From: Clostridiales bacterium
Lineage (GTDB): Bacteria > Bacillota > Clostridia > Oscillospirales > Ruminococcaceae
Length of the DNA stretch: 34,844 nucleotides
Assembly (NCBI GenBank): GCA_029007575.1
Contig: JAQXIB010000148.1
Span: 1 to 34,844 of the forward strand
Direction of reading: 5' to 3'
Shown: positions 19,153-28,401 of the stretch, one piece after another
Layout: every line of letters starts with the position of its first letter
Position numbering within the stretch: position 1 is the stretch's first letter
Notes under the pieces: model-generated
Seen by the model: the letters and a program-made list of their open reading frames with translations, nothing else
Database searches by the model: none
What the model was told of the DNA's origin: nothing
Program-made: the position numbers and the translations under genes

Positions 19153-21405
19153 TTAATTTTGCAGATTTCCGCCATCCACCAGATAGCCATAGGCTGCAAT
19201 TTTTTGTCCGTTTATAACACTGTCGGTATTTGATAGGTTGATTGTAATTCGTACACCATTTTCATAAATCATGGTTTCCAGTGCACCACTTGCTTCAAAT
19301 CCAACAATCTGGCTGCCCTTCACTTGACTTCTCACAGCGTTATATTTTTCATATTGCGCAACAATTTCATCCATCCAATCAGAATAATATCCATTGTAAA
19401 TATATTGCAAGTTAGTATCCTGCAAATCGGTACAGGGGGTACCGGTCAACCGATAGTTCATCTGCGTACCAGTCATAAGACACCGTAAGAAACAGATGCG
19501 GGAATCATCCGCATAATTAAGAGGTGTACTGCTGATATCTGCAATTCCCTGCACTACAATCTGGTAAAAGGGTATCTCGCCGGAAAAAGCATCGTGTTTA
19601 GAAGATGTAACCGGAACATTTATGATTTTTTCAGACAATCCCAGCAGATACCCGTTAGCGCCGTCAGCCGCCATGGGTATTCCCGCCTTAATACCAGCTT
19701 TATATGCCTGAATATATGCCTGTGCAGTATCGGTTCTGTCCGCAGGGTAACGGGAATTAAAATCAGAATATACTACGGAACCCATATCGTTTAAACAAAC
19801 CCCCGCCTTGCCCAACCGACCTTTTTGTCGTAGAATCTGTTCAAAGCACGCACCGATTTTGGATGGTCTCAGATAATAGGAAAGCGGAGAATCCGTATCG
19901 GAAGCGTTAATGCTAGGATTGAAAGCATATTTTATCACATTTGTGGAAAAAACAGACTTAACAGCCGAGTTGAATTTCCAATAGCCGAATTTAGAACGCG
20001 GTACATTGACGTAGTCATAGCCAAAATAAAAACGGCTGTCCCGCGCAGACTGACGCTCCTCCAATTCGTAAAAATCAGACAAGCTTCCCACATGGCGATC
20101 GATACTGACAGAAGCGGGCAGGCTATTTCCATTAGCTTTTTTTGAAATATAATAGAGCATAACATCAATCGAGTTCACTTGTTTTTCTTGCAAATTCTTA
20201 AGCATTTTCTCCATGTTTTCCAGCGTGGTCACCGGGCGTACACGATGTATCATCAACCCCAAAAAGGACTCTTTGTTCTGTACTCCTGCAACAGTTTCCA
20301 GAGTCAATCCCACGCGCTCACTTGTTTTTTCCTGCGCTCCGGTTCGTTTCAAAAGGTCGGCGCGATAATTTTTTGCTATTCCCACTACAGTAGCGTCCTT
20401 ACCGGAAAGAAAAGTGTATTGAAGTTGCGGATTGACGGGAACGGGGTTTTTTGCCAAAAAAGCTACATTGTTATTCTGGGAATACTGAGCAGTAAGTTTA
20501 ACCGAATCTGAGTAACGATAATAGAATCCGGCATTTACAGATGCATAGGAAGTCTGCTTCCCTGCTTGCACCGCCGAGATCCAGCTATTCTCAGCACAAT
20601 CAATCACCTCGGTGTAAAAAGCACCCTGTTCCTTAACCACTCCGAACACCGGCAGCCGAATTTTCTCTCCTGATTGGGTATAGGCATAATCCGACAAAGA
20701 CGGATCACTGCCGTATATACATTTCTGATAATTGTCTGCAAAGGTACGGTCAGATTTAAAATCCATCAATGCCCCGCAACCGTCTGGCACAAACAGGGTT
20801 CCCGTCGTATCCTGCTTTCCTGCTCCGAAAAAAGGCAGTACATCAATTTTCAAAATACGAGCCTCGCCGTTTTCTTTAATTTCATCGTAATGAACGGTAA
20901 CCTGTAGTCTCTTGTTTTTTAGAATATAGGAGACCGGTATAGAAAAATCTTCCTGTGTTCTGGAAAAATGATACAAGACCTTAATGCCACCGTCAATACT
21001 TTTTACTAGACAGGTTTTCTGACGCACACTGCCCACAGTGCTGTTGACAGACTGTTCTGTTTTCCCTGCATCTAAATACGATACAACCAACTGCGACTGT
21101 AAAGCCATTCGCTTTGCTCCCTGTGCAATAGGATCCTCCTTGGCATCGCTCGGATTACTGCTCCAGACGCTGCCGTTATCTTTGTTCAGTATCGAAATAG
21201 AGGAATCCTCACTGTGATAATAAAGTTCCAGGTTTCCATCCGTTGCAATCCGTTCTTTCGCAGGAAAAATATCCGTACTGTTATTTTCAAACACTGTATT
21301 TTCCTGTATGGATTGTTCAAGTGCAAGACCGCTAATCGTTCCGAATAAACAGGTTATAAGAAGCAGAAAGGCCAAAGTCCCCGCAAAATATTTGTGTTTT
21401 TTCAC
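19153..21405 (-). CDS. Large exported or membrane-anchored protein of unknown function (DUF5696-like by context and recollection)
   Basis: The N-terminus [26 protein letters not shown] is a signal or anchor sequence, with a GTG start at 21405 after the SD GAGGTG. The ~700-aa ectodomain has no motif I can assign. It follows a Yip1-type gene, as I recall for DUF5696 proteins in Firmicutes sugar loci. Confidence 0.4.

Positions 21406-28401: not shown

Follow-up and report, generated by a model that had tools for sequence, protein, structure and literature searches.

A conserved bacterial gene module combines twin CUT1-type importers with a giant substrate-binding protein, an NHL/TPR–Yip1 unit and a DUF5696 protein

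The 34,844-nucleotide contig JAQXIB010000148.1 of a Clostridiales bacterium (the whole of which is called the window below) carries a conserved gene module built on two sugar importers of the CUT1 type, that is, ATP-binding cassette (ABC) transporters resembling MalEFG and UgpBAE. The core of the module is a giant substrate-binding protein (SBP), two permease pairs (P1a/P1b and P2a/P2b), an NHL/TPR–Yip1 unit and a protein of family DUF5696; the module as a whole is this seven-gene core, usually brought to nine genes by a small lipoprotein SBP (SBP1) and a regulator. As discussed below, we lean towards seeing in it a self-contained apparatus that captures, trims and imports glycans.

Results

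The module is conserved in order and strand across distant genomes

Fourteen DUF5696 homologues were aligned for a profile scan of one genome per GTDB species, which found 557 stretches encoding a DUF5696 relative. The best 80 loci were taken with 10-kb flanks, and their six-frame open reading frames (ORFs) were searched with the window proteins. Where the sequence reached more than 7.3 kb upstream of DUF5696, as it did in 66 loci, the genes for the giant SBP (both halves), P2a, P2b, NHL/TPR, Yip1 and DUF5696 were present without exception, in one order and on one strand, with Yip1 always directly between NHL/TPR and DUF5696. The block was also present in 8 more loci, to which 7 proteins led; 3 of these proteins were giant-SBP homologues serving as an independent anchor. 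Both the most distant of these anchors (P0080 and P0075) and P0024 recovered the same arrangement, and the two most distant DUF5696 homologues (22–23% identity) sit within it.

Homologues of P1a and P1b immediately followed DUF5696 in 67 loci; in 5 others they immediately preceded the giant SBP, as in the window. P1b stood beside P1a in 72 of the 80 loci; 4 had no P1a match and 4 more no qualifying P1b, and those inspected proved to be cut contigs, while in every untruncated locus the P1 pair adjoined the block. An SBP1-like gene flanked the block in 52 of the 80 loci, which makes it a frequent companion, not an obligate one. In L082, L083/L084 and L087 the seven-gene core stood alone among housekeeping genes, with neither a small SBP nor any other carbohydrate-active enzyme (CAZyme), so the core is independent of its neighbours. 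In the window the conserved unit spans 19153 to 30358 at the least, and its probable limit is 31919.

Carriers of the module include Oscillospiraceae, Acutalibacteraceae, Ruminiclostridium, Lachnospiraceae, Paenibacillus, Cohnella, Metabacillus and three spirochaete metagenome-assembled genomes (MAGs). Paenibacillus pabuli NBRC 13638, P. terrigena DSM 21567 and Anaerotaenia torta DSM 100431 are among the cultured carriers. The module was complete in the diderm Treponema/Spirochaetes MAGs (L049, L058 and L074), which points to horizontal transfer or to a form of the system that works in the periplasm. Locus proteins were about 26–50% identical to the window proteins, identities so low that the conservation does not reflect recent common descent of the whole region. 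The P2 permeases were the most conserved (median identity across loci, 50% for P2a and 47% for P2b) and DUF5696 and SBP1 the most divergent (27% and 26%), a pattern like that of a transport chassis that is conserved while the components for specificity diversify. Several genomes hold two or three paralogous modules (for example L003 and L011; L066 and L067; L036, L050 and L057).

An earlier sequence-only reading of the window had marked out six consecutive, tightly packed genes at 19153–28401, and had stated that their order recurs in Firmicutes. All six ORFs were found there, on the minus strand, and the recurrence is borne out by the colinear loci, with spirochaete MAGs in addition; the neighbourhood analysis proposed in that reading gave a co-occurrence far above chance, not the absence of co-occurrence that it had named as speaking against itself. 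Its six genes stand, but its boundaries were too narrow, as the upstream permease pair is always included and the lipoprotein SBP usually. That pair, which it had treated as a separate importer while supposing that the module feeds the other one only, is an obligate part of the unit.

Two variants of the module were seen in passing. DUF5696 proteins of 1127–1248 aa and giant SBPs of 1149–1248 aa, far longer than those of the window, occurred in L082, L083, L084 and L087, and their extra parts had no Pfam annotation. Within one Oscillospiraceae/Ruminococcaceae group (L003, L005, L011, L015, L017, L027, L033 and L035), about 3 kb separate P1a from P1b (at about 13.0–16.5 kb); this insert holds ORFs without a Pfam match (for example L003:13374-14468 and L011:14288-15856), and a DUF4838 protein follows SBP1.

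The module genes of the window

From the giant SBP to DUF5696 the inter-gene gaps measure −14, 82, 7, −17 and 8 nt (coordinates of all features are given in Table 1). Both permease pairs match BPD_transp_1, with EAA motifs visible in their sequences, and the SBPs of the module belong to the SBP_bac_1 family by Pfam, profile and Foldseek comparison. Between about 5 kb and 34.4 kb every long ORF is on the minus strand, and the GC skew is constantly negative. Promoter and terminator patterns in the window were counted at chance level, which fits one long operon, short of proof.

NHL/TPR and Yip1 are encoded as one protein in many loci

A hydropathy scan of the NHL/TPR protein gave an N-terminal signal and a C-terminal transmembrane helix. 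Five to six stretches of its NHL region matched the six-bladed designs Pizza6 and Pizza7H (E 1e-30), and the extracellular sensor propeller of PknD, the natural parent of the Pizza designs, was matched with E 8e-15; by these sequence matches the region is predicted to be a six-bladed propeller. The neighbouring protein is a Yip1 family member (PF04893; 51 bits against a cut-off of 28.6, model positions 2–172 of 173) with five hydrophobic segments.

The two proteins were encoded by a single ORF in 36 of 75 loci and by two ORFs in the other 39. In the fusions inspected, the transmembrane helix that follows the TPR region is still present before the five Yip1 helices, and the topology of the two forms therefore agrees. 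This is strong genomic evidence that NHL/TPR and Yip1 act together, as one protein. YknW, a Yip1-family protein, is reported to be a subunit of the Bacillus YknWXYZ ABC transporter (PMC4887032); it was the only bacterial Yip1-family protein with a described role that our literature search found.

The giant SBP combines two CBM35-like sandwiches, a helical bundle and an SBP domain

The AlphaFold model of the giant SBP (predicted local distance difference test (pLDDT) 87.7; predicted template-modelling score (pTM) 0.84) comprises a signal peptide, two beta-sandwiches, a bundle of helices (378–402, 421–443, 448–465 and 467–492) and an SBP fold; the Pfam match to SBP_bac_1 is confined to residues 582–854. 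By hhalign the two sandwiches prove homologous (P 99.7%, E 1.5e-25). A family profile matched sandwich 2 to the region of cycloisomaltooligosaccharide glucanotransferase (CITase; 5x7g) that belongs to carbohydrate-binding module (CBM) family 35, with E 5.7e-9, and the homologue P0063 reaches Pfam CBM_35; taken alone, the window protein stayed below the Pfam CBM thresholds. From these comparisons the sandwiches are judged CBM35-like, and carbohydrate binding by them is predicted. The SBP half was closest to the beta-1,2-glucooligosaccharide binder Lin1841 (5ysb; profile E 9e-33), and Foldseek placed it near sophoro-, malto-, cello- and cycloisomalto-oligosaccharide SBPs (TM-score 0.79–0.83). 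No solved structure matched the N-terminal half in Foldseek, which matched the SBP half alone. Many polar and aromatic residues of the protein are invariant across taxa.

The giant SBP has one N-terminal hydrophobic segment by hydropathy scan. The lipobox by which SBPs are anchored as lipoproteins is absent from the window protein and from most of 44 homologues, which have AxA-type signal peptides or uncleaved-looking anchors, while SBP1 has a lipobox. In a monoderm cell, an SBP that lacks one needs other means of retention.

The domain calls of the sequence-only reading thus hold for all six of its proteins, each upheld by Pfam, hydropathy or models: the SBP of about 950 aa with two CBM6/35-like modules, a helical spacer and an SBP fold (AlphaFold model and profiles) and without a lipobox; the NHL propeller with TPR and a C-terminal transmembrane helix (Pfam, Protein Data Bank (PDB) matches and hydropathy); and the five-helix Yip1-type protein.

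DUF5696 is predicted to be a distant relative of GH129 and GH101

Although the sequence-only reading called it merely 'DUF5696-like', the last protein of the block is a true member of DUF5696 (PF18952; 465 bits against a cut-off of 25.6, positions 5–612 of 612), a family of 6,769 clusters at 50% identity (E<=1e-3; 4,057 at E<=1e-30). Every homologue inspected has an export signal (signal peptide, signal anchor or lipobox), which places the protein outside the cytoplasm; the hydropathy scan of the window protein gave a single hydrophobic segment at the N-terminus, in line with the anchored N-terminus proposed earlier. The public gene call (P0001; 713 aa) starts 40 residues inside the ORF that begins with GTG at 21414 (the difference being 21295–21414, minus strand); it loses the N-terminal hydrophobic segment common to all homologues, and the longer start is therefore more likely.

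A search of the PDB with the single sequence gave no match. The AlphaFold model built from an alignment (pLDDT 78.8, pTM 0.83) places a (beta/alpha)8 barrel between an N-terminal and a C-terminal beta-sandwich, the fold of glycoside hydrolase (GH) families GH129 and GH101. Its top Foldseek match in the PDB was ZgGH129 (8rzk/5opq; E 2e-30, TM-score 0.70 by target), followed by the GH129 enzyme NagBb (5wzn; E 4e-24), by the GH101 enzymes EngBF and SpGH101 (E 1e-18 to 1e-15) and then by GH36, GH97 and GH31. The DUF5696 family profile reached ZgGH129 with E 2.3e-5 and NagBb with E 0.012, and an hhalign comparison between 81 DUF5696 sequences and an alignment of the GH129 C-terminal part gave P 93.9% (E 1.6e-7). 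Identity to GH129 is about 12%, and none of 14 DUF5696 members matched Pfam Glyco_hydro_101 (PF12905) or GHL1–GHL3 (PF11308) at E<=10. The sequence-only reading had named membership in a known GH or polysaccharide lyase family as counting against it; what was found is kinship to GH129 in fold and profile without Pfam membership. On the model and profiles, DUF5696 is best placed as a distant GH129/GH101 relative with a conserved polar constellation unlike the GH129 pair; it could act as an enzyme by a modified mechanism, or only bind, as a pseudo-enzyme.

Residues were mapped to GH129 through a profile alignment of the C-terminal fragment, in a low-confidence stretch and without three-dimensional superposition, and conservation was counted in two sets (the 81 loci sequences and a wider set of 148). 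In ZgGH129, D486 is the second Asp of 'DITDITF', as identified from wild-type and D486N chains (the residue is mutated in 8rzk); in this low-confidence alignment it falls at S546 of the window protein, a few residues before the candidate nucleophile Asp551. Seven residues (Asp211, Asp237, Asp551, Arg560, Asn587, Tyr589 and Glu647) are each 84–100% conserved across both sets. The sole invariant acid is Asp211, in the family-specific motif G-Y-x-F-[VI]-P-D-G-[SC]-G of the N-terminal sandwich.

Flanking genes give hints of substrate

Downstream of the module the window encodes a LacZ-type GH2, three DUF4874/DUF4832 proteins, an AraC regulator, a GH20-like protein, a GH123 and an acetyltransferase; these neighbours (GH2, GH20-like, GH123 and DUF4874/DUF4832) hint at glycans containing Gal, GlcNAc or GalNAc. 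A DUF4874+DUF4832 protein also follows DUF5696 in L006, L009 and L012, loci that share the gene order of the window. Most related loci have an AraC gene upstream of the giant SBP, unlike the window. Elsewhere the flanks hold DUF4838, GH32, GH38, GH43, GH35, GH30, GH2, GH42, GH51 and GH78, as well as GH109-like oxidoreductases, GDSL esterases and LacI/AraC regulators, and GH32 lies directly downstream of the module in a Paenibacillus group.

Upstream of SBP1, the window encodes an LPQTG-anchored protein with three tandem repeats of about 250 aa (pairwise BLASTP E 1e-9 to 6e-36), for which no Pfam domain beyond the anchor and no PDB relative were found. It was considered as a member of the unit and rejected, as no homologue lies beside the module in the 80 other loci. 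The left end of the window (258–4764), where the GC content falls to 34–38%, looks like mobile or defence DNA.

Table 1 Features of the 34,844-nt window. Residue numbers of the giant SBP refer to the 950-aa form.
Feature	Coordinates	Strand	Basis and remarks
Core and companion genes
SBP1, small CUT1 SBP lipoprotein, 507 aa	30396-31919	-	Pfam SBP_bac_1/SBP_bac_8; lipobox FIVGC
Permease P1a, second CUT1 pair	29417-30358	-	BPD_transp_1; six hydrophobic helices; EAA-like motif
Permease P1b, second CUT1 pair	28442-29401	-	BPD_transp_1; EAA motif 'EDAAMVDGSG'
Giant SBP	25549-28401	-	950 aa from ATG at 28401; 962 aa from ATG at 28437
Permease P2a, MalF/UgpA-like	24627-25562	-	Pfam BPD_transp_1; NCBIfam UgpA/GlcT-like
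Permease P2b, MalG/UgpE-like	23684-24544	-	Pfam BPD_transp_1; NCBIfam UgpE-like
NHL/TPR protein, 519 aa	22117-23676	-	Pfam NHL (E 4e-13) and several TPR models
Yip1-family membrane protein, 236 aa	21423-22133	-	Pfam Yip1, E 1.8e-13
DUF5696 protein, 753 aa	19153-21414	-	Pfam DUF5696, E 3.8e-139; secreted or N-terminally anchored
Regions of the giant SBP
Beta-sandwich 1, CBM6/35-like, residues ~60-216	27754-28224	-	AlphaFold secondary structure; weak Golvesin_C match
Beta-sandwich 2, CBM35-like, residues ~240-372	27286-27684	-	Family profile and AlphaFold model
Predicted four-helix spacer/bundle, residues ~378-492	26926-27270	-	AlphaFold model; profile matches designed coiled coils
Oligosaccharide-type SBP domain, residues ~550-943	25573-26754	-	Profile and Foldseek
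Regions of the NHL/TPR protein
NHL region	~22507-23469	-	Pfam NHL, 49 bits; PDB sequence matches
TPR region	~22267-22488	-	Residues 403-451 match consensus TPR
C-terminal transmembrane helix, residues 477-495	~22192-22248	-	Hydropathy scan
Other genes
LPQTG-anchored surface protein, 819 aa	31916-34375	-	Upstream of SBP1; 4-nt overlap with SBP1 start
DUF4874+DUF4832 paralogue	14438-16120	-	Signal peptide; same gene string
DUF4874+DUF4832 paralogue	12896-14281	-	No signal peptide; same gene string
AraC-family regulator	11757-12845	-	Mid-string; 4-nt overlap with next gene
GH20-like	9850-11760	-	Overlapped by AraC gene
DUF4874+DUF4832 paralogue	8350-9834	-	No signal peptide; same gene string
GH123 (beta-N-acetylgalactosaminidase family)	6590-8245	-	Near end of co-directional sugar gene string
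Hexapeptide acetyltransferase	5673-6278	-	End of co-directional sugar gene string
Sigma-70 region-4 protein	4270-4764	-	
HepT-like toxin	3164-3553	+	
KilA-N protein	2175-2975	+	
Large serine recombinase	258-1838	-	

Discussion

The strict synteny, the gene fusions, the stand-alone cores, the carbohydrate genes in the flanks, the fold kinship of DUF5696, the export signals and the YknW precedent together lead us to favour, by a modest degree of confidence, a glycan-capturing, -trimming and -importing apparatus built on twin CUT1 importers. In such an apparatus the CBM-like modules of the giant SBP would hold a polymeric or large glycan, which the DUF5696 protein would cut or remodel outside the membrane; the SBP domain and the small lipoprotein SBP would pass the products to both permease pairs, with an MsmX-type ATPase encoded elsewhere powering both importers. 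NHL/TPR–Yip1 would serve as a membrane adaptor that keeps the giant SBP, and perhaps DUF5696, at the transporters, or would control their assembly. Cytoplasmic glycosidases encoded beside each copy (in the window the GH2, GH20-like, GH123 and DUF4874/DUF4832 proteins) would complete the breakdown. A bolder form of the proposal, which we regard as tentative and on balance doubtful, has NHL/TPR–Yip1 as a scaffold joining the twin importers, the non-lipidated CBM-bearing receptor and DUF5696, as a new GH family, into one supercomplex, a counterpart of Sus found mainly in monoderm bacteria, in thousands of lineages and with several paralogues per genome.

Several findings weigh against the apparatus as we propose it. 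None of the scanned ORFs of the window has a Pfam ABC_tran domain, that of the cognate MalK/MsmX-type ATPase. Firmicute CUT1 loci commonly share an orphan ATPase encoded elsewhere, and an ABC_tran gene lay near the module in about 5–7 of the related loci. The CAZymes flanking the module vary so widely among loci (no family was consistent, the top families accounting for at most 9 of 81 flanking ORFs) that no substrate can be named. Spirochaetes are diderm and the module must act there in the periplasm, so capture of polysaccharide at the cell surface cannot be its general task. For DUF5696, the candidate nucleophile Asp551 is Asp in 71 and Asn in 10 of the 81 loci sequences (about 12%) and Asp in 134 of the wider 148. 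On our own reading the GH129 acid/base probably lies in the segment 'NGTEHG', for which DUF5696 has no conserved acidic counterpart (Asn587 there is about 90% conserved). Residue 647, Glu in 84–95% of the family ('LKALETG'), is Met in the window protein, as it is in only 5 of the 81 loci sequences. With no conserved acid at the GH129 acid/base site, a variable Asp551 and Met647 in the window, catalysis is unproven. A physical complex, a polysaccharide substrate and enzymatic processing, like the contacts of NHL/TPR–Yip1 with the other module components, are steps that we infer.

The module could be linked in function and form no supercomplex. NHL/TPR–Yip1 would then be a sensor, regulator or assembly factor that gates or matures the importers, with DUF5696 acting as a secreted glycosidase at a distance. 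The match of the NHL region to the PknD sensor propeller fits this, as does the sole bacterial Yip1 precedent, an accessory subunit (PMC4887032). Many DUF5696 and giant-SBP homologues, moreover, have cleavable-looking AxA signal peptides and no anchors, which also departs from the sequence-only reading. Yet an unlipidated SBP, if released, would be lost from a monoderm cell unless it were held, and the fusions, like the fixed gene order, speak for partners in stoichiometric amounts and less for a regulator; we therefore rate this arrangement as unlikely, while taking it seriously.

Less probable again, in our estimate, is that DUF5696 derives from a GH without being catalytic, and serves as a glycan-binding or structural subunit (a pseudo-enzyme) in a module that captures and imports only. 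Its barrel has no invariant acid pair, Asn stands at the GH129 acid/base position and in some members at Asp551, and the sole invariant acid lies in the N-terminal sandwich; the seven conserved polar residues, however, are what an active site would show, and the residue mapping comes from a low-confidence stretch of a profile alignment without structural superposition. We hold it very improbable that the module works on glycans of the cell's own envelope or matrix, in their turnover or recycling, or in signalling, in place of nutrient foraging. The stand-alone cores do lie among housekeeping and cell-wall genes (Mur ligase, Peptidase_M23, Glycos_transf_4 and MecA), and the invariant residues of the giant SBP could mean one common ligand, but most copies are in operons with catabolic GHs and sugar regulators, and several genomes hold multiple paralogues, as is the case for nutrient loci. 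The view that chance has put unrelated genes beside an ordinary ABC sugar operon, for which only the occurrence of each family elsewhere can be cited, is refuted by 66 of 66 colinear loci over Bacillota classes and spirochaetes at about 25–50% identity and by the fusions.

The transport chassis of the proposed apparatus is of a known kind, that of the CUT1 importers in Gram-positive sugar loci, with which it shares SBP_bac_1 SBPs, two BPD_transp_1 permeases with EAA motifs per importer, an ATPase outside the locus, and AraC/LacI regulators and GHs alongside. It differs from them in two permease pairs that are obligately linked, in obligate NHL/TPR–Yip1 and DUF5696 genes between the importers, and in one SBP that is twice the normal size, with CBM35-like modules and a helical bundle and no lipid anchor.

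The accessory proteins also have known counterparts. DUF5696 has the three-domain architecture of GH129 (the 3,6-anhydro-D-galactosidase ZgGH129 and the alpha-N-acetylgalactosaminidase NagBb) and of GH101 (endo-alpha-N-acetylgalactosaminidase), and with GH129 it shares profile-level homology, motifs around 'PFYQ/PLWN' and the C-terminal sandwich. It differs in the Asn at the GH129 acid/base Glu and in its own invariant FxPDGxG in the N-terminal domain. Both GH129 and GH101 are retaining alpha-glycosidase families. As in PknD, a six-bladed NHL propeller is predicted to stand outside the membrane on a single transmembrane helix, but the NHL protein of the module has no kinase domain, and TPR repeats and the Yip1 membrane domain follow. 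In YknWXYZ, too, a bacterial membrane protein of the Yip1 family is encoded with an ABC transporter and works with it; YknXYZ, however, is a MacB-type exporter with a membrane-fusion protein, whereas the module has SBP-dependent importers and a Yip1 coupled or fused to an NHL/TPR ectodomain. The Sus-like systems of Bacteroidota are alike in concept (a transport core with a surface glycan binder and an enzyme, multiplied in genomes and with variable CAZymes around) but show no homology, the module being based on monoderm ABC importers and not on a TonB-dependent SusC/SusD pair.

The obligate pairing of importers, the giant CBM-bearing non-lipidated SBP, NHL/TPR–Yip1 and the DUF5696 protein appear to be undescribed, in line with the earlier view of the module as uncharacterised; we found no paper naming DUF5696 or PF18952 in a search that did not cover subscription journals, and a description under another name is possible. 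The ABC sugar importers of Gram-positive gut and soil bacteria are usually drawn as a lipoprotein SBP with two permeases; here two importers come as a fixed set with three further, uncharacterised proteins, in a large family. If the proposed apparatus is true, a function would be assigned to DUF5696, which might become the first member of a new glycosidase family; nutrient uptake would be seen for the first time as a role of a bacterial Yip1 protein; and the retention at the cell of an SBP without a lipid anchor would be explained. As the carriers include abundant gut Oscillospiraceae and Acutalibacteraceae and cultivable Paenibacillus, these proposals are directly testable by genetics and biochemistry.

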